Positions 1 through 34,299 of a stretch of DNA of 64,000 nt are shown here, piece after piece; the stretch's first letter is position 1, and every line of letters starts with the position of its first letter. Source of the DNA: Gemmatimonadota bacterium (GTDB lineage: Bacteria > Gemmatimonadota > Gemmatimonadetes > Gemmatimonadales > JACORV01); contig JBGOSS010000015.1 in assembly GCA_041476105.1 (NCBI GenBank), positions 2,829 to 66,828 of the forward strand, in the 5' to 3' direction. The translations under genes were made by a program, and so were the position numbers. The notes under the pieces are model-generated. The model did not search any database, was not told the origin of the DNA, and saw only the letters and a list, made by a program, of their open reading frames with translations.

Positions 1-45
1 GTGACGAATGGCTTGTGGCAGTGGACGACGCGGACGCGCGAGTGA
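1..45 (+). CDS. 3' end of an upstream cassette ORF (partial, ...TNGLWQWTTRTRE*)
   Basis: Frame 1 is open from the window edge to TGA at 43-45, 15 nt before attC 1. Too short to identify. Confidence 0.2.
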   Translation: MTNGLWQWTTRTRE

Positions 46-60
46 TGCACTGGCGCCGAT

Positions 61-158
61 GCTTGACTACGGGTTGAAGCTGACGGCGCCCAGGTGGTGC
101 GTCGCCGCGGCCCCGGGCTGTGGTGGGGGCGCCGCAGCTTGACACCTGTCCGTTAGGC
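61..158 (+). repeat. attC recombination site 1
   Basis: R'' GCTTGAC 61-67, 5-nt spacer, L'' GTTGAAGCTGAC 73-84. L' GCAGCTTGAC 134-143, 8-nt spacer, R' GTTAGGC 152-158. The arms are complementary with single unpaired bases (GTTGAAGC vs GCTTGAC; TGACGGCGCC vs GGCGCCGCA). Confidence 0.8.
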
Positions 159-172
159 AGCCGCGCCCAACA

Positions 173-601
173 ATGCGAGGCCAGTGGGCACCCTTCGCGG
201 AGTCATGGCGCATCACAGCGCTACGCACCGGCTCGCTCGCCGTGGCAATCGGCATGGGGGTTGGCCTGTATCAGCGACAGCTGGCCGTGGTGCCGCTGGT
301 AACGGTGCTCGCGCTATGGTTCACCCTCGGTGGCCACTTCCTTGAGGTGCTCTTCCGAAACCAACTTGGCCGCCGCATCGGCGGCCAACCCAGGCAATCC
401 GTCGCTCGTCTGGCGTACTGGTTCGCGGGAGGGTCGGTGCTCTACGCGGGAGCACTGGCTACCCTCGCGCTCCTTACGGGTCGCCGTCCTGGCCCATGGC
501 CCTGGTGGGCCGGCGGCGTGGGCTTCGTCGTAGCGGAGCTCCTGATCCACCAGTTGCTTCGTGCGCGCGGACACGCCAGCTTCTACAATGGCCTCGGGTA
601 A
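173..601 (+). CDS. Cassette ORF: hypothetical integral membrane protein (142 aa)
   Basis: ATG is 15 nt after the attC1 core. Three to four hydrophobic segments (LAVVPLVTVLALWFTLGG, YWFAGGSVLYAGALATLALL, WWAGGVGFVVAELLI). Stop TAA 599-601 lies just before attC2. Confidence 0.65.
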   Translation: MRGQWAPFAESWRITALRTGSLAVAIGMGVGLYQRQLAVVPLVTVLALWFTLGGHFLEVLFRNQLGRRIGGQPRQSVARLAYWFAGGSVLYAGALATLALLTGRRPGPWPWWAGGVGFVVAELLIHQLLRARGHASFYNGLG

Positions 602-610
602 CGGTCGGCT

Positions 611-706
611 GCCTAACCATACGTTGAAGCTGTCGGCCGGGCCGACGTGTGGGGCCTCGCGCCGCTGCCTGTGGCCCGGCCGCCGCTTGACGCTTATCCG
701 TTAGCC
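611..706 (+). repeat. attC recombination site 2
   Basis: R'' GCCTAAC 611-617, spacer CATAC, L'' GTTGAAGCTGTC 623-634. Perfect inner stem CGGCCGGGCC / GGCCCGGCCG. L' GCTTGAC 685-691, 8-nt spacer, R' GTTAGCC 700-706. Flanks GGCTGCCTAAC / GTTAGCCAGC are complementary with one mismatch. Confidence 0.85.
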
Positions 707-719
707 AGCGGAGAACAGC

Positions 720-1196
720 ATGGCGCTCGGTGAAGTCCAAGTCGCGCACATCAGCAGCACCCCGCTTGCGGTCGTACGTCGCCAAGCACGCGTCTCCGAG
801 CTTGCCACGGCCGTTCCAGAGGGGTGCGGTGTGGTTTGGTCATTTGTTCGCGCCCACCAGCTCCGGGCCGGCCGGAACGTGGCGGTCTATTGGGACGGGA
901 CCATTCGTCTCGAAGTCGGCGTCGAACTGGATGGAGTGTTTCCGGAAGGAGGCGGGGTTGTTCGGTCGGCCACTCCAGCGGGCCCTGCCGCGTCGGTGGT
1001 ACACCTCGGGCCGTATGACCAACTCGGAGCGGCGCATCAGGCGATTCGCAATTGGTGTTCCGCCCACCATCGGCGGCTCGCGGGCCCGAACTGGGAGGTC
1101 TACGGCCACTGGCAGAATGACTGGGACGCCGATGCCTCCCGAATTCGTACCGATGTCTTCTACCAGTTGACGCCGGACGGCTCCTCGGCTGGCTAA
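720..1196 (+). CDS. Cassette ORF: GyrI-like small-molecule-binding domain protein
   Basis: 158 aa with the typical GyrI-like / AraC-effector-binding pattern (VAVYWDG...LEVGVEL, GPYDQLGAAHQAIRNWC, WEVYGHW). ATG is 14 nt after the attC2 core. Confidence 0.8.
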   Translation: MALGEVQVAHISSTPLAVVRRQARVSELATAVPEGCGVVWSFVRAHQLRAGRNVAVYWDGTIRLEVGVELDGVFPEGGGVVRSATPAGPAASVVHLGPYDQLGAAHQAIRNWCSAHHRRLAGPNWEVYGHWQNDWDADASRIRTDVFYQLTPDGSSAG

Positions 1197-1303
1197 CCAA
1201 GCGCTGAAGCCGACCGGCGCGGCCGGCCGGGAGGCTGCCTCGATCAACATCACGATAACAGCTCGGGACAGCGGTCAGTCCGCAGTCCGCTTGCGCGTTC
1301 ACG
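1191..1303 (+). repeat. attC-like site 3 (clear 5' half, degenerate 3' half)
   Basis: R'' GGCTAAC 1191-1197 contains stop TAA 1194-1196. Spacer CAAGC, L'' GCTGAAGCCGAC, closely matching site 5. L' GCTTGCGC 1289-1296 pairs with GCGCTGAAGC. The right core is only GTTCACG 1297-1303 and the spacing is abnormal. Confidence 0.4.
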
Positions 1304-1394
1304 CGCATCTGGACTCGGCGAGCCGAGTGCGCGGAGGCACCAGCAGATCGGTGCTGCCTAACTCTGCCAGGCGGGCATCTGCTGGAGTACTCGA

Positions 1395-2030
1395 ATGACG
1401 GTAGGCGTTCGCCAGTCCGCGGGCCTTGCCGGATTCGTCGGCTCCGGAGCCGTCGCGGGCGCAGCATCCGCCTTCGCTTTCACGGTCCTGCACCAGCTGC
1501 TCATCAGCCCCATCTGGTTCGCGCTCCCGATCAACCTCGTGGCCGGGGCGCTGTGCGGAGTGTGCCTCGCGTGGAGTTACGTCCTTGTCGTCTCCGCGCC
1601 AACGGTACGGAGTTGGCTGCAGTACAATGTTCTTTACCTGGTCATGTTTGTGGCACTCGGTCTCACCTCGTTGGTCGCGTTCGAACCCGTGACGACCATC
1701 AGCGCACTCCTCCAGACGAATGAGCCTCCGCGCGCCCTGATAGGCCGTGCGCTCCCCGTGACAGGCCTTTTCACGCTGGCAACGGCGGCGCTGCTGAGCA
1801 GGATCTACCGCCCGGGGTGGCGGAGGTCGGGCGGGCTCCTTGTGACGACGACCGTCCTCGTGCTATTCCTGGGTCTCAACATCTCGATTCTCGGGTTGGT
1901 CGCGATTCCCCGCAGCGGGGTGATCGTGCTCGCCGAGGTGCTTACGCTGCTTGTCGCAATCATGGCGGCGTATGTGGCTGTCGTCGTGGCGCTCAGCCGA
2001 GCCCGCTTTGCGAGCGCACCCAGCGCCTGA
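1395..2030 (+). CDS. Cassette ORF: hypothetical polytopic membrane protein (211 aa)
   Basis: GGAG lies 7 nt upstream of the ATG. Five to six hydrophobic helices. The stop TGA is embedded in the next left core. Confidence 0.7.
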   Translation: MTVGVRQSAGLAGFVGSGAVAGAASAFAFTVLHQLLISPIWFALPINLVAGALCGVCLAWSYVLVVSAPTVRSWLQYNVLYLVMFVALGLTSLVAFEPVTTISALLQTNEPPRALIGRALPVTGLFTLATAALLSRIYRPGWRRSGGLLVTTTVLVLFLGLNISILGLVAIPRSGVIVLAEVLTLLVAIMAAYVAVVVALSRARFASAPSA

Positions 2031-2116
2031 CTACGGTCTAAACCTGACGAGGCGCCCCGGGTCACATCCGCGCAGCCGCCATTGGCGTTTGCGTTTCAGG
2101 GCGTTACCGTGGAGGC
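2025..2116 (+). repeat. attC-like site 4 (degenerate right core)
   Basis: The 5' half GCCTGACTACGGTCTAAACCTGACGAGGCGCC is homologous to the 5' half of site 1 (GCTTGACTACGGGTTGAAGCTGACGGCGCC). The 3' half CGTTTCAGGGCGTTACCGT pairs with it with bulges. The right core is GTGGAGGC, with no GTT. Confidence 0.4.
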
Positions 2117-2223
2117 ATTCGGGTCACCGCCATCGCGAAGGCGTTCAGGTGCATGCAGCCTCACCATCGTGTCCGGGCAGCGAATGCCGTCGGCGCTGTC
2201 CATGGCATCTTGCCCTGGCGGGA

Positions 2224-3102
2224 ATGGCCCTCCTGGTCGGGCCGGCCTGCGCCGGACCCCCGCGCACAACCGCCGGGCATGAACCCGCATGGCGGACACC
2301 GACTTCTCCCCCATCGTGGATGCAGGGGGTGTGGACCCGTGAATGGATTGAGGTCAACGGCGTGCGCTCCAGCCGGTTCGCCGTCCACTATCTTCAGACC
2401 CCCAGCCTGTTTGCGGATGTGCGTTTGCCCATCCAGCGCCCGGCCTTCGCCCATGCCACCTCGTTCGCTGATCTGACCGATGACGAACTCCTGCTGCTCG
2501 CCAAGCAGCGAGGCTTCACTGGTCGCGTTACCGCCGTGGGTGACACGATTACCTGGCAGCACGAGATCGACTTTCAACCGCCTGACGGTACGCCTGACAT
2601 CGGCCGCGTGCAGCGCATCGGCCCCACCCAGATGTACGAACACGCTCTCGACAGCTCCTATGTGGAATCGTGGCGGTCAGTGGCCTCGGGCGATGAGGCG
2701 TTCCTCGTGGTTCGCGTTGAGCGGGCGGGCCGGCTGGATCAGATTCTCTTGGTCGCGAGTGACTATTTCCTCTACGTTCGGAATCGGTCGGCTGACCTTC
2801 CCGTCGCGAAATCCCTTGACTCGCTGATCGTGGCCACACGCGCGTCTCGTACGCAGATCATCGCGCTTCTCGATTGCGAGTTTTCAACAGGGCGCGTGCG
2901 CGCCGGCTCGGTCCCGTGGGAGATCCAGGCATCCACCCTCCCTTGGCGGGAGGGCCACCAGCTTGCGTTCGCCAACGCTATTGCCGTCTTGCCCGACTCC
3001 ATCCACCTGAGCGTGCACGTCAGTTCTACAGAGCGGTGGGTGGTGCCGATCAACACCCTGCCCAAAGCGGTCCTGGTAGCCCTCTTCCCCACTACGAGGT
3101 AA
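2224..3102 (+). CDS. Cassette ORF: hypothetical protein (start uncertain; ATG 2224 or 2320)
   Basis: Only the C-terminal ~260 aa of the 1951..3102 ORF looks protein-like (WTREWIEVNGVRS...DYFLYVRNRSADLP...). The part upstream of 2116 overlaps the previous gene and attC4. Confidence 0.55.
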   Translation: MALLVGPACAGPPRTTAGHEPAWRTPTSPPSWMQGVWTREWIEVNGVRSSRFAVHYLQTPSLFADVRLPIQRPAFAHATSFADLTDDELLLLAKQRGFTGRVTAVGDTITWQHEIDFQPPDGTPDIGRVQRIGPTQMYEHALDSSYVESWRSVASGDEAFLVVRVERAGRLDQILLVASDYFLYVRNRSADLPVAKSLDSLIVATRASRTQIIALLDCEFSTGRVRAGSVPWEIQASTLPWREGHQLAFANAIAVLPDSIHLSVHVSSTERWVVPINTLPKAVLVALFPTTR

Positions 3103-3115
3103 GTCGGCTGCTGAC

Positions 3116-3214
3116 GTCTAGCCAAGCGTTAAAGCCGCCGGCGCGGCCCGCCGCGTGTGCTATCTTCCCGCTGCGGGGCGGCCGCGAGCGCGGCTTGACG
3201 CCGGTCCGTGAGGC
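3116..3214 (+). repeat. attC recombination site 5
   Basis: R'' GTCTAGC 3116-3122, spacer CAAGC, L'' GTTAAAGCCGCC 3128-3139. L' GCGGCTTGAC 3190-3199, 8-nt spacer, R' GTGAGGC 3208-3214. Inner stems GGCGCGGCC / GGCCGCG. Confidence 0.75.
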
Positions 3215-3322
3215 CGCCAAGGCAGCGCGCTCTTGTCCGGTGCGGTTGGACCGTATCGAACGGAGGTACCATGAGTCCTGACACTGCGATCCGGTTACGC
3301 CGGGGTTTGCTGCGCGAGGACC

Positions 3323-3652
3323 ATGGCATACGATGAGAAGCTCGCCGATCGCGTCCGCCGGGAGCTTGGCGACCGCCGGGGCGTAGCCGAAAAGAGGATG
3401 TTCGGTGGCCTGGCCTTCATGTTGCACGGCAACATGGTATGCGGCGTCCTCGGCTCGGATCTCGTTGTAAGGGTCGGCCCTCAAGCGCATGAGGCTGAGT
3501 TGCGGCGTCCGCATGCCCGGGTCATGGATTTCACACACCGACCGATGAAGGGCTATCTGTACGTCGGGCCCAAGGGCATGGCCACGGCGGCGTCGCTGCG
3601 TTCGCGGCTGAAGCCTGCGCTTGCCTTTGTCGGCTCGCTGCCGCGCAAGTGA
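3323..3652 (+). CDS. TfoX N-terminal domain protein
   Basis: 109 aa with the MFGGLAFMLHGNMVCGV motif typical of TfoX_N. GAGGA lies 5 nt upstream of the ATG. Confidence 0.85.
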   Translation: MAYDEKLADRVRRELGDRRGVAEKRMFGGLAFMLHGNMVCGVLGSDLVVRVGPQAHEAELRRPHARVMDFTHRPMKGYLYVGPKGMATAASLRSRLKPALAFVGSLPRK

Positions 3653-3715
3653 CCCAGTGTGTTGCGGGACTCGTAGTTCAAGAGCGTTCGTTCGGCGCAC
3701 GACGCACTACCGCGA

Positions 3716-4117
3716 ATGCGAGCGCGCAGCATGACTGTCCGCATTGTTCGCCTCGGTGTACCGCGGAGCCCCGATGAGGGGCTGCGTATCGGAACCGTGC
3801 GGCGTCCACCCCGCGGCGTCCCGAAGAGTCAATATGCCGCGCAGAACTGGTACGACGTGTGGTTCCCCGAGCTGGCGCCGAGCGCACCAACGGTGAAGCT
3901 CGCGTTGGCCGCCAGGACCCAGCGCCAATGGGACGCGTTCGCAAAGCGGTATCGTGCCGAGTTGGCAGCGCCCGAGAAGACGAGAATTCTGAGGCTGCTG
4001 GCGGCATTGTCGCGGCAGGCAAACTTCTCGGTTGGGTGCTACTGTACGGACGAGACCCGTTGCCACCGGTCGGTGTTGCGCGCGCTGCTGAAGGAGCAGG
4101 GCGCACACCTCGCCTGA
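3716..4117 (+). CDS. DUF488 family protein
   Basis: Family pattern RIVRLG...PRG...WFPELAPS...F..RY..EL...LLCYC.....CHR. The alternative ATG at 3731 gives the usual N-terminus. No attC lies between it and tfoX-like, so this may be a two-gene cassette. Confidence 0.85.
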   Translation: MRARSMTVRIVRLGVPRSPDEGLRIGTVRRPPRGVPKSQYAAQNWYDVWFPELAPSAPTVKLALAARTQRQWDAFAKRYRAELAAPEKTRILRLLAALSRQANFSVGCYCTDETRCHRSVLRALLKEQGAHLA

Positions 4118-4194
4118 GTTGAGCGTACGGTCCAGGCCGGCTGGTGAGTGACGCCTCACGGGCCGCGGAAGTGCACACCATTTCCTGTCAAGGC
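4112..4194 (+). repeat. Possible decayed attC (site 6)
   Basis: The left core GCCTGAG contains stop TGA 4115-4117. The 3' end TTCCTGTCAAGGCAGAGCC aligns with the site 1 3' end ACCTGTCCGTTAGGCAGCC but has lost the GTT. Arm pairing is weak. Confidence 0.25.
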
Positions 4195-4224
4195 AGAGCC
4201 GCACTCACGTCGGGGCGTGCGCGT

Positions 4225-4590
4225 GTGAATCGAAGTCTGTCGCAGGCACTGGCCGCGTTTCGAGTCGTGCTCGGCGCCTCTCTTCTGTACGGAAGCGCCG
4301 CCACGGCGATTGCCGCAGGGGTCAACGCGGCGGTCAACCACGCCGGCCGCCTCCCTGTTCTCTTGCTGGCCAGTGTCGAGGCTGTGGGAGCGCTCTTGCT
4401 GCTTCTCCCGCGCACCCGGCAACCCGGCGCGGTGCTTCTCATTCTGACGATCGGGCTGGCCTTCATGGTCCACCTGGTGGGGCGCGACTTTCGACCGGAT
4501 CTCCTGGTGTACCTGGCCGGCGTCGCGCTGGTAGCCGTGCATGACCGATCGACGCGAACCGGTTCGCGTGCGGCCGCGACCGCGGCGTGA
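4225..4590 (+). CDS. Cassette ORF: DoxX-like small membrane protein
   Basis: GTG 4225 (VNRSLSQALAAFRVVLGASLLYG...) follows the putative core. Four hydrophobic helices. The ORF-track start at 4144 would overlap the attC-like element. Confidence 0.55.
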   Translation: MNRSLSQALAAFRVVLGASLLYGSAATAIAAGVNAAVNHAGRLPVLLLASVEAVGALLLLLPRTRQPGAVLLILTIGLAFMVHLVGRDFRPDLLVYLAGVALVAVHDRSTRTGSRAAATAA

Positions 4591-4800
4591 CGCCGATCCG
4601 CCAGCCAGCGCTCTGAGACCTCGGAGGGGCCATGCCCAGGTGGCGGAAGCCTACGCGCTGGCGTGACAGGTCTTGCTGGTGATCGCCGGACAGGATATTC
4701 CTTCGCTGCTCAGTCGGCACCGGGCGCTGCTGCGGCTGAAGGTGCCCGCCGTCGTCTGGCGCACTGTTCCGGCTGTCGGTGGCGAGCACCGCAGCGCAAC

Positions 4801-4901
4801 GCCTATCCGCTAGGTGGCCGCCTCTGCCATTTCCAACCACTGTCCGTATCTCGCGAACACTCAGGACGCCGGCTCTTGCAGCTTGACCCCCTGCGTTAGG
4901 C
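4801..4901 (+). repeat. attC recombination site 7 (right half firm, left boundary uncertain)
   Basis: L' GCAGCTTGAC 4878-4887 is identical to site 1. 7-nt spacer, canonical R' GTTAGGC 4895-4901. The best left core is GCCTATC 4801-4807 (one mismatch to GCCTAAC), but L'' pairing is poor. Confidence 0.55.
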
Positions 4902-4967
4902 GCCGATCCTGCTGCTGGCCAGCCACGAAGAAGCACGACTCTCTCTCTCACAGTGGGAGGCGCGTTC

Positions 4968-5156
4968 ATGAAGGCCTATGTCATGACCACCGGCGCGGTC
5001 TTCGGTCTGCTCACGCTGGTTCACATCTGGCGCGCCATCGAGGAAGGGCCGCACCTCGCGACCGACCCCTGGTATGTGCTCGTCACGGTTGTCGCGGCGG
5101 CGCTGTGCCTCTGGGCGTGCCGCGTGCTTTGGCTGGCTCGGCGGCCGACACCGTAG
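4968..5156 (+). CDS. Cassette ORF: small two-helix membrane protein (62 aa)
   Basis: GGGAGG 4956-4961 lies 6 nt before ATG 4968. Sequence MKAYVMTTGAVFGLLTLVHIW...YVLVTVVAAALCLWACRVLWL. Confidence 0.55.
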   Translation: MKAYVMTTGAVFGLLTLVHIWRAIEEGPHLATDPWYVLVTVVAAALCLWACRVLWLARRPTP

Positions 5157-5209
5157 CTACGGCGACCGGGAGTGCGAGGTTCGCGACCCGAACGGCTCCG
5201 TCCCGGTGT

Positions 5210-6517
5210 TCAGTGATTTGATCGAGTGAGGATGCGCACGATCTCGGGCTGCCGGAAAAAGTCGGCCCAGCCGATCGCGTCGCCGTCGTGTTTGCTGTCG
5301 CGGATGCCCGGGTCGGCGCCGGCCGCGAGCAGCAGGCGCACGATGGCGGCGTGACCCTGGGCAGCCGCCAGGTGTAACGGAGTCACCTCGGCGTCCCAAT
5401 GGCTCCAGCGGGCATTGGGGTCCACGCCGTGGTCGAGGAGCCACGTGACCGCCACCACGTCGCTCCGCTTGGCCATCAGGTGCAACATGCCGCCATGCGC
5501 GGCGCCGGGCCCGATCAGGCCCGGAGTCTCGCGCACCAGCCGCTCGGCCATCTCCCAGTCCCCCAACGCCAGGGCGGCGATGAGATCCAGCGTGCCGCCG
5601 CGCGGCGGGCGGTGCCCCCGTTCGGCGCTGACCAGCTCCGCCGACGTCATGGCGCGGATCACCTCCATCACCCGCCGGTCGGTGTTGGAGGCGGTCGCAT
5701 AGGCCATGGCGGGGAAGCCGGACCCATCGACCGCCAACGGATCGGCACCCAGTTCCATCAGCAGCGAGACCATCTCCGGAAGATTCTTCAGCACCGCGAA
5801 ATGCAGCGGCAGGCGGTGATTCTCGTTGCGGCTCTGCCGGGTGTTCAGCATTGCCGGGTCGGCCGCCACGATCCGGCGAACCTCCTCCGCGAGCCCGATC
5901 GCGATCGCCGAGAAGATGTGGTGCCGCGCCCCGCGGCTGACCAGGAATGCGGCGACGGCCCTGTGGGTGGCGTCGTCGCACCCGTCCCAGCACGTCGCCC
6001 AACCGATGACCTCCAGCTCGTGATCGTCGCCATGACCGATGACGTCACCGCCCGCGTCGGCCAGGCGGCGCACGACGTCCAGGTGACCGGCCGCCGCGGC
6101 CCAGTGCATCGCGTAGGTGTTGTCTCCCTTCTCGCGGGTGTTCACGTCCAGGCCGCGCCCGAGCAGGAGGTCCACCGTTGCCAGGTGCCCGCCTTCGGCC
6201 GCCGCGTGCAGCAACGACCACTCGTAGGGCGCGTTCCGGCCGTGCAGCCTTTCCGGGTGTTGATCGAGCAGCGCTCCCAGGGCGCCGGCGTCGCCGCTCT
6301 TCGCGGCGCCGAACAGCTTGCCGTCCAGCGTCAGTGAATCGACGTGCGCCTTGAGCGCCCGCCAGCCCGAAAACCCGTACTGCCTGGCCAGGTCGAGCTG
6401 CGCGTCGGCCAGCTTGGCGGCCGGCTGCTCCTTCCGCAGCTCCTCGAGCCGGCGCTTGGCCTGCTTGCGGAGCCAGTCGAGGTTGGGGGCGTCAGGGAGT
6501 GAAAGCGGAGTGGACAT
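5210..6517 (-). CDS. Ankyrin-repeat protein
   Basis: 435 aa from ATG 6517 (MSTPLSLPD...). Multiple ANK motifs (LLHAAAEGGHLATVDLLLGRGLDVN, AMHWAAAAGHLDVVRRLADAGGDV, TPLHLAAAQGHAAIVRLLLAAGADP). Confidence 0.9.
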   Translation of the reverse strand: MSTPLSLPDAPNLDWLRKQAKRRLEELRKEQPAAKLADAQLDLARQYGFSGWRALKAHVDSLTLDGKLFGAAKSGDAGALGALLDQHPERLHGRNAPYEWSLLHAAAEGGHLATVDLLLGRGLDVNTREKGDNTYAMHWAAAAGHLDVVRRLADAGGDVIGHGDDHELEVIGWATCWDGCDDATHRAVAAFLVSRGARHHIFSAIAIGLAEEVRRIVAADPAMLNTRQSRNENHRLPLHFAVLKNLPEMVSLLMELGADPLAVDGSGFPAMAYATASNTDRRVMEVIRAMTSAELVSAERGHRPPRGGTLDLIAALALGDWEMAERLVRETPGLIGPGAAHGGMLHLMAKRSDVVAVTWLLDHGVDPNARWSHWDAEVTPLHLAAAQGHAAIVRLLLAAGADPGIRDSKHDGDAIGWADFFRQPEIVRILTRSNH

Positions 6518-6786
6518 GAGGCACCTTCCTTCCCTGGAAAGGGCAAGCCCTTTCGTGCCGCCCGTCGTCCGCAGTTGGGGCGAGGAAGAGAAGGTGATGC
6601 GGCCCCGTTGGCCGCCCTCGCGGCGCTGCATCAATGGTACGGCCGGGGTGCGAGCGCGACAAGAGATCGCTCGCTCTCCGGCGATGGGTTTGCGATTGCG
6701 GTCGCCGCCAGCCACATTCTGTCCCGGTGACCGACCAGCCGCCAATTCCAGAACGCGACGCTGTTCGAGTCCGGGTCCTGGCGGCG

Positions 6787-7803
6787 GTGCGCCGCCTCGG
6801 GCTGGTGATCGCATCCCTCGCGCTCGCCATCGTCGCGACGGACATCGTGCTGCGCGTGCGCCCGGAGTATCGCCCTTACCCGCGCTTCTACGTGGGCCAG
6901 ATGACCAACCGGGTCAGCCCCAACTATGCCCCCGACGCTCTTCTCGGCTGGCGGATGCGCCCCAACGACACGCTGCATTGGGGTGGGAGCAGCACCGTGA
7001 TGGCGTCCACCTACGTCAGCAACGCGCAAGGATGGCGCAGCCCGGTGGACTTTTCGGCCACCTGCGGCAAGCCGCGCGTCATCCTGATCGGCGACTCGTA
7101 CATCTTCGGCACCGGCGCGAACTATGCGCAGACCATCGCCGCGAGGCTCGCCGACAGTCTCGCCCACCGGGCCGACGTCTACAACATGGGCATGGCCGGG
7201 TACGGCATGGACCAGATGTGGATGATGCTGCGCCACGAGGCCCTGGCCCTGTGCCCCTCGCTCTTGGTGGTGGGGTTCATCGACGACGACTGGAACCGCA
7301 GCCAGAATGCGTTCCGGCGCGACCAGGGCTTCAACAAGCCGACCTTCGTCCTGGACCACGACACGCTGCGCCCGGCGACGCAGGCCGACACGCCCATCGG
7401 CCCGGTGAAGTGGATCGAACGCCACTCGGCGATCTGGCGTCTCACCACGACGGCGATGCGCACCTGGGCCTACCGGACCGGGCACACGAACTGGTTCCGC
7501 CTGAATGCGATGCTGATGGCGGCGATGGCGCGCGACGCACGCGCGGCCGGCGTCCCGGTGCTCTTTGTGCGGTGGCCGAACAAGCGCGGCGCATGGCGCG
7601 GATCCCCGGCGCTGCGCGTCTTCATGGACAGCATCGGGGCGCCCTTCATCGACCTCGCGGACCCGTCGCTCGAGCGCCACGACATTCATTTCGCGATGGA
7701 CGACCACCTCAACGCGCGTGGCGTAGGGTATGCGGCCTCGGCGATCCTCGGCTGGCTGCGCCGGCGCGAGCCTCCCGGTCTGCCCGGCCTGCCGAACCCG
7801 TAG
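6787..7803 (+). CDS. SGNH/GDSL-type hydrolase with N-terminal membrane anchor
   Basis: GTG 6787 gives MRRLGLVIASLALAIVATD, a signal anchor. Block I is VILIGDSYIFG. The C-terminal DDHLNARG resembles the DxxH block. Ends in a Pro-rich tail, PPGLPGLPNP, then TAG. Confidence 0.7.
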   Translation: MRRLGLVIASLALAIVATDIVLRVRPEYRPYPRFYVGQMTNRVSPNYAPDALLGWRMRPNDTLHWGGSSTVMASTYVSNAQGWRSPVDFSATCGKPRVILIGDSYIFGTGANYAQTIAARLADSLAHRADVYNMGMAGYGMDQMWMMLRHEALALCPSLLVVGFIDDDWNRSQNAFRRDQGFNKPTFVLDHDTLRPATQADTPIGPVKWIERHSAIWRLTTTAMRTWAYRTGHTNWFRLNAMLMAAMARDARAAGVPVLFVRWPNKRGAWRGSPALRVFMDSIGAPFIDLADPSLERHDIHFAMDDHLNARGVGYAASAILGWLRRREPPGLPGLPNP

Positions 7804-8739: not shown

Positions 8740-9429
8740 GTGCCGCCTCTCCCGCTGCCGCTCCGCTCGGTCGTGACGACGCTGCGCCGGTACTACGGCG
8801 CGCCGCCAAGACCGGTCAGCCGCGATCCCTTCCGGCTCATCCTGTGGGAGCAGGTCGCCTACCTGGTCCCCGATGCGCAGCGCCACCAGGCGTTCAAGGC
8901 CCTGCGGGAGGAGGTCGGGCTGACACCGAGTGACATCGAGGCGGCGAGCGCCGCGACGCTGGTGCGCATCGCGCGCCTGGGTGGACCGATCGCCGCCGGG
9001 GTGCGCGCGGGTCGCCTGCGCAGCTCCGCCGAGCGTGTCATGGGGCGCTGGGATGGGCACCTGGCCGTCGCACTCCGTGGACTGCCCCTGGCGCAGGCGC
9101 GCCGGGCCCTGGCGCAGTTCGCCATGATCGGCGAGCCCGGAGCGGACAAGATCCTGGTCTTCGGCGGGCGCGCGCACCTCCTGCCCCTCGACTCCAACGG
9201 CCTGCGTGTCCTCTGCCGGCTGGGCCTCACCTCCGAGCAGCGCGACTACCGGGCGACCTACCGGCACGCCCAGGCGTCGCTGGCGCCCGTCCTGCCGCGC
9301 ACCTCGGCTGCGCTGGTCGCCGCGTACTACCTGCTCCGACGCCACGGCCAGGAGCTCTGCCGGCGGAAGGCGCCGCTCTGCACGCGGTGCCCCCTCCAGG
9401 ATCGCTGCCCGTATGGTCGTGCTCACTGA
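8740..9429 (+). CDS. HhH-GPD / endonuclease III-like DNA glycosylase-fold protein with Fe-S cluster loop
   Basis: C-terminal CRRKAPLCTRCPLQDRC (C-x6-C-x2-C-x5-C), as in Nth/MutY. Helix-hairpin-helix-like MIGEPGADKILVFG. Confidence 0.75.
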   Translation: MPPLPLPLRSVVTTLRRYYGAPPRPVSRDPFRLILWEQVAYLVPDAQRHQAFKALREEVGLTPSDIEAASAATLVRIARLGGPIAAGVRAGRLRSSAERVMGRWDGHLAVALRGLPLAQARRALAQFAMIGEPGADKILVFGGRAHLLPLDSNGLRVLCRLGLTSEQRDYRATYRHAQASLAPVLPRTSAALVAAYYLLRRHGQELCRRKAPLCTRCPLQDRCPYGRAH

Positions 9430-9932: not shown

Positions 9933-10259
9933 ATGCGCACTCGGCTCACCTGGCTCGCCGTCGCGGTGGCGTTGGCCATCGGCATCGCGATCGGCTACGT
10001 CGACTCGCGCCCGACCTGGGACGACACGGGCATCACGGCAGGCTCGGTCTTCCTGGCGGCCGCGATCCTCTCGGCGGTCCGGCCGCGGGCCGCCTGGCTG
10101 GTCGGTCTGGCCGCCGGCGCGCCGGTCCTGGTCTTCAACGTCGTTCTGTCCGGCAACTTCGGGTCGGCGGTCGCAATCGCCATCGGGCTCGTCGGCGCGC
10201 TGGTGGGCTTCCTGGTCGGGAAGGCGGCCGGCCTGGGCGGAGCCCCACGGTCCGCGTGA
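9933..10259 (+). CDS. Hypothetical small membrane protein
   Basis: ATG 9933 (MRTRLTWLAVAVALAIGIAIGYV...). Three helices. The ORF-track start at 9774 overlaps the previous gene. Confidence 0.6.
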   Translation: MRTRLTWLAVAVALAIGIAIGYVDSRPTWDDTGITAGSVFLAAAILSAVRPRAAWLVGLAAGAPVLVFNVVLSGNFGSAVAIAIGLVGALVGFLVGKAAGLGGAPRSA

Positions 10260-11086
10260 CGACGTGGCAGGAACTTCTTCAGCCGGGCCGCGCTTCGCGG
10301 TTCTTCGAGCGCCGGCCGCTCCCGACCTTCAATCCCGGCACGCCCGGTTACGACGCGGCAAACGCCTGGTGGCTCGCCGAGCTTAGTCGTCTCGTCTACC
10401 GGCACGATGTCGAGGAAGACGCGACGCCCTTGCTGCCATTGCGCAGCAGCTTTCTCGCCGAAGCCGGCTTGCGTCAGGTGGCGTTCTTCCTCGCGCCGGC
10501 GACCGACACGCAGGGCTATCTCGTCAGGTTGGACGGGCCCGCGCCCTTTGCGGCCCTGGTATTCCGGGGCACCGAGGGGAGGATGAAGGACATCGAACAC
10601 GATCTGGAAATTGATACGGTGCCGCTCCCGAATCTTGCCGCGCGGGTGCATGAAGGATTCACCGAGGCGCTGAACTCCGTATGGGGAAACGTCGTCGCGG
10701 AGCTGGATCGCCTGGTATGCCCGGTCTTCTACGCCGGCCACAGCCTCGGCGCCGCGCTCGCCACGCTGGCGGCCTCGCGCCGTGCGCCGCGCGCGCTGTA
10801 CACCTTCGGATCCCCGCGCGTCGGCAACGCGGCGTTCGCGGCCTCCCTGGCCGGCGTCCCCGTGTTTCGAGTCGTCAACCGCGCGGACGTGGTCGCGACG
10901 CTCCCGCCCGAGCGGCTGGGATACGCGCACGTGGGTGAGCTCCACCACCTTGCCGCTGCCGCTGAGGCCCTGTCCACGCACGGTCTCCTCTCCCGGCTCC
11001 GGCGCCTGGGAAAGCCGCCGGAGCCCCTGGGCGACCACGCACCTATCAACTATGTCGAGCACCTGGCCGCCAACGATGCTGGGTAA
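10256..11086 (+). CDS. Class 3 lipase family protein
   Basis: GTG start with a GTGA overlap on the previous stop. VFRGTE, HEGF and the nucleophile elbow GHSLGAALA, then YTFGSPRVGN. Confidence 0.85.
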   Translation: MTTWQELLQPGRASRFFERRPLPTFNPGTPGYDAANAWWLAELSRLVYRHDVEEDATPLLPLRSSFLAEAGLRQVAFFLAPATDTQGYLVRLDGPAPFAALVFRGTEGRMKDIEHDLEIDTVPLPNLAARVHEGFTEALNSVWGNVVAELDRLVCPVFYAGHSLGAALATLAASRRAPRALYTFGSPRVGNAAFAASLAGVPVFRVVNRADVVATLPPERLGYAHVGELHHLAAAAEALSTHGLLSRLRRLGKPPEPLGDHAPINYVEHLAANDAG

Positions 11087-14641: not shown

Positions 14642-15100
14642 ATGAGCTCGCTCGGTTTCCGCATGACCGTCGTCAGCCTCTGGCTGCTGGGGCCGGGAAT
14701 GCTCCAGGCGCAGGCAACCGCCAACGTGCAGGTCGATTTCGCCAGTACCGCGGTCTCGCTCGTCGGCCACCCCGCGATGATCTCGGCGATCCGCCACGAC
14801 AGCGTGATCGCGCAGATCGAAACCGTGCTGCGCAATGGGGAGCGTCTCTCGAACATCGCGGTCGGGCAGTACGACATCCGGGTCGAGAGCGAGGGCGCCG
14901 TGACGGAAGTCAAGCGAGGCGTGCAGGTCATCGCCGGGCGTGGGGCGCAGCTCCAGTTCGCGCTCCGTCCGGGCCAGGGTGTGCACATCGTGGAGTTCGC
15001 GACCGGCGGGATCTCCCGGGAGGAAGTGGCCACCCGTCTGGCACGCCTCGAGGCGGCCGTCACCGAGCTCCAGCGCGCCGCGGCCGCTCGCCGCCCATGA
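14642..15100 (+). CDS. Hypothetical secreted protein (CarboxypepD_reg-like beta-sandwich plus C-terminal helix)
   Basis: AGGAGG SD, a signal peptide, and the motif GQYDIRVESEGAVTEVKRGVQV. Confidence 0.55.
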   Translation: MSSLGFRMTVVSLWLLGPGMLQAQATANVQVDFASTAVSLVGHPAMISAIRHDSVIAQIETVLRNGERLSNIAVGQYDIRVESEGAVTEVKRGVQVIAGRGAQLQFALRPGQGVHIVEFATGGISREEVATRLARLEAAVTELQRAAAARRP

Positions 15101-15217
15101 GCGTCCCCTGACTCGGCGCTGATTCCGGTGTTCACGGAGTCGGCCGAGCTCTGCCACGCCATCTACTTCGGTTTCAAGGACTACGCCGCCGTCGCGGAGG
15201 CCGCGCCATAACCCACC

Positions 15218-15247
15218 TTGACATATCCATGCGCCATGGCCTATATA
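15218..15247 (+). promoter_or_regulatory. Sigma-70-type promoter of arsR-like gene (TTGACA-18-TATATA), transcript probably leaderless
   Basis: TTGACA 15218-15223 and TATATA 15242-15247. The ATG at 15252 lies only 5 nt after the -10. The imperfect palindrome ATGGCCTATATAGGACAT overlaps the -10. Confidence 0.5.
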
Positions 15248-15251
15248 GGAC

Positions 15252-15587
15252 ATGGCCTATGGACAGACACTGGAAGCCCTTGCCGACCCCACGCGCCGGG
15301 CGCTGTACGAGCGGCTCCGGTCCGGCCCGCACACTGTCGGTGAGCTCGCCGCGTTCGCGCGGGTCCGCCAACCGACGGTCTCCCAGCACCTGCGGGTGCT
15401 GCGGGAGGCGAAGCTGGTGGCCGACCGCAGGGCGGGGACGCGCCGCTACTATCGTGCCTCGCGCGACGGTCTCGCGGATCTGCGCCGCTACGTGGAGTCG
15501 CTCTGGGACGATGTGCTCGCCGCCTACGCGGCGGACGACCCGCATCCGCCGGCGCGGCGTCGCGCCGGAATGAAAGGGCCGCGCTGA
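15252..15587 (+). CDS. ArsR/SmtB family transcriptional regulator
   Basis: LADPTRRALYERL...HTVGELA...QPTVSQHLRVLREAKLV winged-helix signature. Confidence 0.9.
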   Translation: MAYGQTLEALADPTRRALYERLRSGPHTVGELAAFARVRQPTVSQHLRVLREAKLVADRRAGTRRYYRASRDGLADLRRYVESLWDDVLAAYAADDPHPPARRRAGMKGPR

Positions 15588-19788: not shown

Positions 19789-20280
19789 GTGGATATCGCG
19801 GACACCACGCTGCACATCCCGCACCCCTACCCCGAAGGGGCGGCGGAGCAGTGGATCGGAACCCACGCCGCGGGCTGGCGGGACGGCACGCTGGTGACGT
19901 ACGCCATCACCGGCCTCGACGGCGGTGCGCTGATCGGCGCCATCGGACTGACCATCGCCCCGCAACACGCGCGCGGAGAGCTGGGCTACTGGATCGCGCT
20001 GCAGCACTGGAGCCGGGGCTTCTGCACCGAGGCGGGGCAGGCGATACTGGCGCTCGGCTTCCAGGTGCTGCGGCTGCACCGCATTCAGGCCCGACACCTG
20101 ACGCGCAATCCCGCCTCCGGGCGCGTGATGCAGAAGCTCGGCATGCGCCTCGAGGGCGTCCATCGGGCATCGGTGAAGAAATGGGATCGCTTCGAGGACC
20201 TCGCCCTCTACGCTATCCTCGCCCCGGAGTGGACGCCGCCGGCGCGAGACGCCCCGGTGCCGCGCCCCCCGGTCGTCTAA
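19789..20280 (+). CDS. GNAT family N-acetyltransferase (RimJ/RimL-like)
   Basis: IGAIGL...GELGYWIALQHWSRGFCTEA...RIQARHLTRNPASGRVMQKLGM. The N-terminus looks short and the start follows the previous stop in the same frame. Confidence 0.8.
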   Translation: MDIADTTLHIPHPYPEGAAEQWIGTHAAGWRDGTLVTYAITGLDGGALIGAIGLTIAPQHARGELGYWIALQHWSRGFCTEAGQAILALGFQVLRLHRIQARHLTRNPASGRVMQKLGMRLEGVHRASVKKWDRFEDLALYAILAPEWTPPARDAPVPRPPVV

Positions 20281-33861: not shown

Positions 33862-34299
33862 GTGGACCAATACCTGCGCGCGGCGATCGAGGAAGCGGAG
33901 CAGGGGCTTGCCGAGGGCGGCATCCCGGTCGGCTCGGTTCTGGTCCACGGAGGCCGGATCATCGGGCGCGGGCACAATCGGCGCGTCCAGCGGAGCAGCG
34001 CCGTGCTGCACGCCGAGATGGACGCGATCGAAAATGCCGGGCGGCAGAGCGCCGCGGTCTATCGGGCGGCCGTGCTCTACTCCACGCTTTCGCCGTGCGC
34101 CATGTGCAGCGGTGCCGCCCTGCTCTATGGCATCGGGCGCGTCGTCATCGGCGAGAACCGCACTTTCCAGGGCGAGGAGGCGCTGCTCCGCTCCCGGGGC
34201 GTGCTCGTCGACGTCGTGGACGACGCGCGGTGTCGGAGTCTCATGGCGCGTTTCATCGAAACCAATCCGGCGCTCTGGGCCGAAGATATCGGCGAATGA
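33862..34299 (+). CDS. Nucleoside/cytosine deaminase (Fcy1-like CMP/dCMP deaminase zinc-binding fold)
   Basis: HAEMDAIENAG and TLSPCAMCSGA zinc motifs. C-terminal FIETNPALWAEDIGE, as in yeast-type cytosine deaminases. Confidence 0.8.
   Translation: MDQYLRAAIEEAEQGLAEGGIPVGSVLVHGGRIIGRGHNRRVQRSSAVLHAEMDAIENAGRQSAAVYRAAVLYSTLSPCAMCSGAALLYGIGRVVIGENRTFQGEEALLRSRGVLVDVVDDARCRSLMARFIETNPALWAEDIGE

Follow-up and report, generated by a model that had tools for sequence, protein, structure and literature searches.

Intergenic repeats in a 64-kb stretch of Gemmatimonadales DNA very probably mark the distal part of an integron cassette array

Are the closely spaced repeats at one end of a 64,000-nt stretch of DNA from a Gemmatimonadota bacterium (contig JBGOSS010000015.1; the whole stretch is referred to as the window) the attC recombination sites of an integron, or intergenic palindromes of another kind? 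An initial annotation had opted for a gene-cassette array and against repetitive extragenic palindromes (REP) or bacterial interspersed mosaic elements (BIME), and our analysis sustains this choice, based on site architecture, clustering, cross-recognition with the attC sites of class 1 integrons, covariation, footprints of cassette exchange and the presence of the integron integrase IntI in relatives. We conclude that an integron cassette array of a Gemmatimonadales chromosome very probably has its distal part at window positions 1-4901. Within these 4.9 kb, four full or short attC sites and five half-sites, all on the plus strand, accompany eight plus-strand open reading frames (ORFs); that is, the window holds at least two co-oriented attC sites <4 kb apart with same-strand ORFs between them, the arrangement that defines an array.

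An attC site is an imperfect palindrome of ~55-145 nt with R''-L'' and L'-R' boxes and a variable central stem. Three complete imperfect palindromes of 96-99 nt answer this description on the plus strand, at 61-158, 611-706 and 3116-3214, exactly the positions of the attC-like elements in the initial annotation; the wider family spans 51-145 nt. In each, the R'' core (RYYYAAC) is followed by 5 nt, an L'' box with two bulged bases, a variable GC stem, the L' box, a spacer and the R' core (GTTRRRY), with site 3116-3214 deviating once in each core. The 98-nt site at 61-158 reads GCTTGAC (R''), TACGG, GTTGAAGCTGAC (L''), a GC-rich stem, GCAGCTTGAC (L'), ACCTGTCC and GTTAGGC (R'), with top-strand bulges at G76 and A83 and a predicted crossover between G152 and T153. 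The 96-nt site at 611-706 is composed of GCCTAAC, CATAC, GTTGAAGCTGTC, the stem, GCCGCTTGAC, GCTTATCC and GTTAGCC; its R'' is the exact complement of the R' of the upstream site (GTTAGGC), its own in-array R' being GTTAGCC. The 99-nt site at 3116-3214 comprises GTCTAGC (R''), CAAGC, GTTAAAGCCGCC, the stem, GCGGCTTGAC, GCCGGTCC and GTGAGGC (R'), the GTT triplet of R' thus being degraded to GTG. The corresponding crossovers would fall at 700|701 in site 611-706 and at 3208|3209 in site 3116-3214. The consensus cores of the family are GCCTAAC and GTTAGGC. Aligned with a fourth copy at positions 413-511 of L001, a metagenome contig identical to the window where the two overlap, the three sites display a mean column identity of 78%.

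Folded as single-stranded DNA, each strand of each site formed the expected long hairpin. The R''-L'' arm carries two single-base bulges, one after GTT and one after AAGCNG, which provide the strand asymmetry (extrahelical bases) characteristic of attC. These bulges occupy the same model positions as in the attC sites of aadA5, blaVIM-2, aac(3)-Ia and aac(6')-Il, while the identity of the bulged bases varies. The L'-R' spacer, initially given as 7-8 nt, measures 8 nt in the window sites, the 7-nt version being restricted to a right half at 4878-4901. Across the soil attC family (alignment A3) this spacer is likewise 8 nt long, with consensus CGCGATCC; many members can lengthen the L helix by the first three spacer bases.

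The distribution of the repeat was followed with three kinds of model. A covariance model built from the four aligned sites (R1) was run with filters off over all 64 kb; beyond its training sites it matched 4754-4815 (26.7 bits) and 4515-4606 (18.9 bits); scores elsewhere did not exceed 16.6 bits. A second covariance model (R2), built from 130 related soil-metagenome sites on other contigs, returned 45.9 (611-706), 45.6 (61-158), 27.3 (3116-3214) and 20.2 bits (4754-4815) within positions 1-4815, all on the plus strand, and at most 15.3 bits elsewhere. Ungapped half-site matrices placed five left and four right halves in 1-4815, again all on the plus strand, and every one of them scored above the maxima of the other 57 kb (6.6 for left and 2.7 for right halves). 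Because all half-site, R1 and R2 matches above background fall within the first 4.9 kb and on the plus strand, the repeat is confined to this segment and strictly co-oriented, i.e., the opposite of a dispersed REP family. None of the three approaches detected a copy of the repeat on either strand of window 5001-64000; the scattered copies that, according to the initial annotation, would have pointed to a REP-type family were thus not encountered in this part. The GC content of 1-4901 (0.660, vs 0.704 elsewhere) is lower than that of every other 4.9-kb stretch of the window, and a scan of the window at Rfam gathering thresholds yielded no match to any family.

Recognition between these sites and known attC sites works in both directions. 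In the forward test, matrices for the left arm, L' and R' were derived from 12 known class 1 attC sites and scanned over both window strands. The top three matches were 611-706 (37.9, the best of the window), 3116-3214 (31.9) and 61-158 (29.4), with eight to nine of nine L''/L' pairs formed (nine of nine at both 3116-3214 and 61-158), followed in fourth place by a lone left half at 1191. The remainder of the window scored at most 24.6, or 12.6 when at least eight pairs were required, and 40 random 64-kb sequences at most 26.2, or 22.8 under the same requirement. In the reverse test, R2, which contains no sequence from known integrons, was run on three annotated class 1 integrons (plasmids pJB12, pXBB1-9 and pEC1). 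It recovered all eight class 1 attC sites, namely those of aac(6')-Il, blaVIM-2, aac(3)-Ia, aac(6')-Ib4 (twice), arr-3, dfrA17 and aadA5, each on the strand of the cassettes and at an annotated cassette junction, with 13.5-29 bits. Five of the eight (17.6-29.0 bits) exceeded the best false matches (16.4 and 15.3 bits), and three (13.5-14.0 bits) lay below them. In the R2 alignments the class 1 sites show the same register as the family, i.e., R'', 5 nt, GTT, a bulged base, AAGCNG, a second bulged base and the stem. Judged by their sequence, the window sites are demonstrably equivalent to known attC sites.

Apart from the complete sites, the array contains incomplete ones. The last recognisable site is a right half only (4878-4901, plus strand), consisting of L' GCAGCTTGAC, 7 nt and R' GTTAGGC; it repeats the L' and R' boxes at 134-158 exactly, and the combination GCAGCTTGAC-N7-GTTAGGC occurs twice in the window, with 0 occurrences expected by chance. 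The initial annotation had counted a fourth element in the right half of 4801-4901, of which only this right half stands: no left half lies upstream of it, folding having revealed no attC-like pairing there. Two left halves occur on the plus strand further upstream. The one at 1191-1215 combines R'' GGCTAAC, which contains an ORF stop and is the exact complement of the upstream R' GTTAGCC of site 611-706, with 5 nt and L'' GCTGAAGCCGAC; it scored 8.2 with the family matrix (null maximum 6.6) and, with the class 1 matrices, 25.1 in the left and 2.7 in the right arm. No right half was found, and the region folds unlike attC. The left half at 2025-2049 consists of R'' GCCTGAC (containing a stop codon), 5 nt and L'' TCTAAACCTGAC, scored 12.0 against the same null maximum of 6.6 and is 80% identical to the left half at 61-85; here, too, the right half and an attC-like fold are absent. 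Folding used to seek the missing halves of the sites at 1191, 2025 and 4878 returned no attC-like pairing for any of the three.

Two more degraded stretches lie near the distal end, both on the plus strand. A short attC-like site of 62 nt at 4754-4815 runs from R'' GTCTGGC to L' GCAGCGCAAC, 8 nt and R' GCTAGGT; it was matched by both covariance models, its right half scored 9.9 (null maximum 2.7), and its fold is no better than that of shuffled sequences. A weak right-half-like remnant at 4570-4606 (GCGGCGTGAC-GCCGATCC-GCCAGCC), included in the R1 match at 4515-4606, shares 83% identity with the right half of site 3116-3214 and was not significant with R2 or the matrices. Half-sites and sites with degraded cores (GTG at 3208, GCT at 4809) make up about half of the total, and from this we infer that the array is old at its distal end and has become largely fixed there, i.e., partly immobilised.

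Sites of the same family are widespread in soil bacteria. A scan of species-representative genomes with the DinB-family protein at the left edge of the window identified 65 loci, mostly in metagenome-assembled genomes (MAGs) of Gemmatimonadota and Acidobacteriota, at ≤73% identity, and a scan of metagenomes with the DoxX-family protein encoded further left, on L001, identified 80 loci at 80-95% identity. In the 80 metagenome loci, R1 identified 130 sites, every one of them on the plus strand; single loci held as many as 14, and the median distance between sites was 852 nt. R2 found 60 further sites in the MAG loci, including at least 16 in L011, 12 in L056 and 8 in L029. The same attC family thus links large arrays in Gemmatimonadota and in Acidobacteriota metagenomes. 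Among 96 distinct family sites, 95.7% of the cells in 19 proposed pairs form standard pairs, in an alignment that was fitted to the model and hence favours pairing; compensatory changes occur in 12 of the 19 pairs, and sliding the partners by 1-3 columns left 14-50% paired. L006 and L042 were considered as syntenic arrays and rejected, as homologous genes are present there and attC sites are absent.

Cassette exchange should leave a trace in such arrays. In integron recombination, R' is cut between G and TT; therefore, the last six bases of an in-array R' belong to the next cassette and should complement the R'' of that cassette. Of 65 neighbouring site pairs in related arrays, 25 have differing R' cores and 24 of these are decisive: the R'' of a site fits the R' of the preceding site better than its own in-array R' in 18 of the 24, the reverse being true of 6 (p = 0.023); in several of these six the neighbouring sites are >1 kb apart, and a site between them may have escaped detection. 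In the window, the sites at 611 and 1191 obey this rule, the R'' of the former not complementing its own GTTAGCC, and the site at 61 breaks it. Cassettes also change neighbours. The homology of the DoxX cassette to the 80 loci ends at the gene end or at an attC site, and DinB homologues lie at varying distance and in varying order relative to DoxX, or inside unrelated arrays; in some MAGs they reside within attC arrays and in others they are ordinary genes. Both the chimeric sites, as left by exchange between G and TT, and the occurrence of the DoxX and DinB cassettes in different arrays and orders are what independently mobile units leave behind. At the level of DNA sequence, site architecture, clustering, attC equivalence and exchange footprints within the family can be regarded as established.

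Two of the ~150 related loci carry intI. L103 (1134-2366) and L068 (1281-2447) encode integron integrases (436 and 468 bits with TIGR02249, cut-off 265) that are 52-55% identical to IntI1. In both, intI lies on the cassette strand and is followed by a GTTRRRY core, at 2717-2723 in L103 and 2645-2651 in L068, and then by attC sites of the window's family (2927-3053 and 3583-3710 in L103; 3047-3126 and others in L068). These cores, GTTAGGC and GTTGGGC, situated ~350 and ~200 nt after the intI stop, are putative attI cores. The array of this complete integron in L103 also contains an insertion sequence (IS)-type DDE transposase gene with rve domains (4658-5464).

Could the window repeats still be generic intergenic palindromes dispersed in the manner of REP or BIME, or terminator hairpins, without any relation to integrons? 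Like REP and BIME, they are imperfect palindromes between genes, and they are GC-rich hairpins that follow ORFs. Yet they are strictly co-oriented instead of dispersed, with no copy in the other 59 kb; their R and L boxes are attC core boxes, conserved at fixed spacing and mutually recognised with known attC sites; they bound mobile cassettes; no T-runs or terminator calls fall on them; and their relatives adjoin IntI. We consider this explanation highly improbable.

Whether the array has an integrase is a different matter, on which two accounts, each with slightly less than even odds in our estimate, stand level. The array may belong to a complete sedentary chromosomal integron whose functional intI, attI and Pc promoter would lie immediately beyond the left edge of the window, perhaps in the orientation of the cassettes, as seen in L103 and L068. 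To the left, the array does extend beyond position 1 by 1 kb or more, IntI immediately precedes arrays of relatives that share its attC family, and breaks within arrays are frequent in assemblies (PMC9024848); against this count the lack of an integrase within the window, the rarity of intI among the related loci and the decay of many window sites. Or it may be a cluster of attC sites lacking an integrase (CALIN), a decaying remnant whose integrase was lost or never present and which would at most be mobilised in trans. For a CALIN speak the absence of intI or an intI pseudogene from the 64 kb, the five of nine sites that are halves or degraded, and the fact that CALINs are about as common in genomes as complete integrons (PMC9024848). 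However, the left boundary of the array lies beyond the window, so that absence of the integrase cannot be asserted, and three sites are intact, with perfect complementarity between R'' and the upstream R' kept at two sites.

Several observations weigh against the conclusion that positions 1-4901 are part of an integron cassette array. No intI gene was found among the window's ORFs of ≥150 aa, all of which were searched with IntI1 (a query 100% identical to annotated IntI1), and tblastn with three IntI proteins detected no intI fragment with E <0.3 in the 64 kb; an IntI gene adjoining the array, as in a complete integron, is thus not seen within the window, the left end of the array being located outside it. 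The window holds only three complete sites, and cores deviate from the consensus at 61 (R'' GCTTGAC), 3208 (R' GTGAGGC) and 4809 (R' GCTAGGT). Fold energies of single sites are modestly better than those of shuffled sequences (z-scores -0.8 to -3.7; -2.4 for site 611-706). R1, R2 and A3 derive from the window's own sites, and their window scores are not independent evidence. A further covariance model from nine truncated class 1 attC sites (R3) returned no match in the window; as R3 also misses known class 1 sites longer than ~72 nt, its result was discarded as a design fault and the arm matrices were used instead. Finally, the initial annotation had suggested comparing strains for cassette variability, and this comparison turned up none: four near-identical contigs from other samples, namely JGI 3300053056, JGI 3300053057, SRR29604879 and SRR35960035, have the same cassette order, with no presence/absence polymorphism.

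The ORFs of the array, all on the plus strand, encode proteins of 67-260 aa that are unrelated to one another, in agreement with the short, unrelated, same-strand ORFs initially described. The annotation had further placed their stop codons inside the left cores, which holds at 1191-1197 (GGCTAAC) and 2025-2031 (GCCTGAC) and fails at the three complete sites: the ORF before 3116 stops at 3100-3102, ahead of GTCTAGC, and stops precede the cores at 61 and 611 by 16 and 10 nt, respectively. Position 1 lies within a DinB-family cassette ORF of which 1-45 is the 3' end (stop TGA at 43-45) and the remainder lies left of the window; the assignment comes from L001 544-1062, where the DNA is identical and shifted by 1017 bases (Pfam DinB/DinB_2). 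It is followed by cassette ORFs for a predicted membrane protein of 142 aa (173-601; no family match, homologue in the Gemmatimonadales MAG locus L042), a 158-aa protein with a GyrI-like small-molecule-binding domain (720-1196; PF06445, E = 1e-7), a 211-aa multi-pass membrane protein (1395-2030; no family match) and a 260-aa protein without family match (2320-3102; start as called on L001, alternative ATG at 2224). Three more ORFs encode a 109-aa protein with a TfoX N-terminal domain (3323-3652; PF04993, E = 4e-13), a 133-aa DUF488 protein of the active N3 subclade (3716-4117; PF22751, E = 7e-46; homologue in L042) and a 148-aa membrane protein (4144-4590), the 3' end of the last overlapping the right-half-like stretch. 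No attC was found between these three (3323-4590), and they represent either one multi-gene cassette or cassettes that have lost their sites. After the last R', a small ORF (4953-5156) encodes a membrane protein of 67 aa, with a 71% nucleotide match in the Gemmatimonadales locus L062; it is either a last cassette without attC or part of the flank. Searches of the cargo against defence-system and NCBIfam models gave no meaningful match beyond the Pfam domains, and no sigma-70-like promoter was found in window 1-7000.

Four short, near-identical metagenome contigs carry the GyrI-like cassette protein, and L001 extends 1,016 bases left of the window, through a DoxX-family gene, an attC site and then the DinB cassette. 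The array thus has at least two more cassettes, DinB and DoxX, left of position 1, bearing out the initial expectation that it continues in this direction. Extending it further with the DoxX protein was tried and brought up only relatives at ≤96% identity in other contexts. On its other side, the array ends at a chromosomal flank that begins with an ankyrin-repeat gene on the minus strand (5210-6814; Pfam Ank families). L006, a contig without attC sites from a Gemmatimonadaceae MAG, holds a counterpart of this gene with 75.7% nucleotide identity. The best named homologues of a PPK2 encoded in the window all belong to Gemmatimonadales or Gemmatimonadetes (70-76% identity). Together with the ankyrin gene, this accords with the high-GC, non-proteobacterial host suggested at the outset; the host is probably a member of the Gemmatimonadales.

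Synteny between the window and L006 is partial: the ankyrin gene (5228-6595, 75.7%) is joined by a second gene (19795-20241, 71.7%), and the ~13 kb between these two genes in the window are missing from L006. L042 holds homologues of the 142-aa membrane protein, DinB and DUF488 within 11 kb (4210-4622, 10026-10473 and 14995-15383). No recognisable attC accompanies these three L042 genes, which may represent a fully decayed array or a coincidence.

Elsewhere, too, the same genes appear with and without attC sites. The DoxX gene is situated 1-3 kb beyond an array end without attC in L070, L093 and L113, has attC on both sides in L077 and L085, and is followed in L087 by a right-half-only attC abutting its stop codon; a family attC lies just downstream of it in only 21 of 79 loci. 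Within the window, a gene for a 229-aa HhH/iron-sulfur glycosylase-like protein (8740-9429; weak MutY-type NCBIfam matches) has no attC and is 69% identical at the DNA level to an attC-bounded cassette gene in L085 (5815-6490) and L101. Positions 33887-34223 share 76% DNA identity with L034 533-869, directly after an attC at L034 346-486, and are a chromosomal gene with a cassette-borne homologue elsewhere. In related soil lineages, then, DoxX, DinB, the glycosylase-like gene and the gene at 33887-34223 occur as attC-bounded cassettes, with half an attC or as attC-less chromosomal genes, at 69-96% nucleotide identity between states. It seems unlikely that these loci have caught cassette birth or decay in progress, and attC decay more simply explains the full, half and missing sites of the same genes. 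If the attC-less copies were sources, they would make a tractable data set on the unsolved question of how cassettes acquire attC.

By analogy with established integron biology, the array would operate as follows. Its unit is a short promoterless plus-strand ORF followed by an attC site, whose bottom strand is expected to fold into a hairpin, with R' on R'' and L' on L'', and whose bulged bases would mark the strand to use. IntI, a tyrosine recombinase, would bind this folded bottom strand and cut between G and TT of R'; cassettes could then be excised as circles (attC x attC) or inserted at attI next to intI, and their transcription would start from the Pc promoter near intI. The integrase, attI and Pc of this genome would be located outside the window, or be absent if the array is a CALIN.

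How does the array compare with known systems? It is one more chromosomal cassette array, and it comes from a soil phylum that has been little sampled; its cargo consists of DinB-like, GyrI-like, TfoX_N and DUF488 proteins and small membrane proteins, mostly of unknown function. Its practical value lies in the annotation of these ORFs as accessory, horizontally exchanged genes, and the array offers an entry point to a cassette pool common to soil bacteria. With class 1 attC sites (aadA1, blaVIM-2, aac(3)-Ia etc.) the window sites share R'' RYYYAAC, 5 nt and then GTT-N-AAGCNG-N-C, the right arm CNGCTT-RAC followed by GTTRRRY, bulges at the same two positions and a length within the known range, and models from either set detect the other. 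They differ in the L'-R' spacer, which is 5-6 nt long in 14 class 1 sites as opposed to 8 nt here (7 nt in one site), and in their GC-rich variable stem; the window array, moreover, is without resistance genes. Sedentary chromosomal integron arrays and CALINs as described with IntegronFinder (Cury 2016, PMC4889954; Neron 2022, PMC9024848) likewise have co-oriented attC sites <4 kb apart that are similar within an array, small promoterless cassettes mostly of unknown function, a chromosomal location and a GC content below that of the flank. In contrast to these, the window has no integrase in view, about half of its sites are decayed, and its host belongs not to the Proteobacteria but to the Gemmatimonadales, whose phylum is already listed among integron carriers (PMC8618304).

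These features have precedents. Gemmatimonadota and Acidobacteriota are already on record as carrying integrons (PMC8618304), an attC model specific to Acidobacteria is available (PMC8352920), and both CALINs and arrays split in draft assemblies are well documented (PMC4889954, PMC9024848). The co-oriented placement of intI and cassettes, seen here in the relatives L103 and L068 only, matches the already described 'inverted'-integrase integrons of, e.g., Treponema (PMC4889954, PMC8352920). Measured against these systems, the window array is a typical example of a well-known one and leaves the understanding of integrons unchanged.

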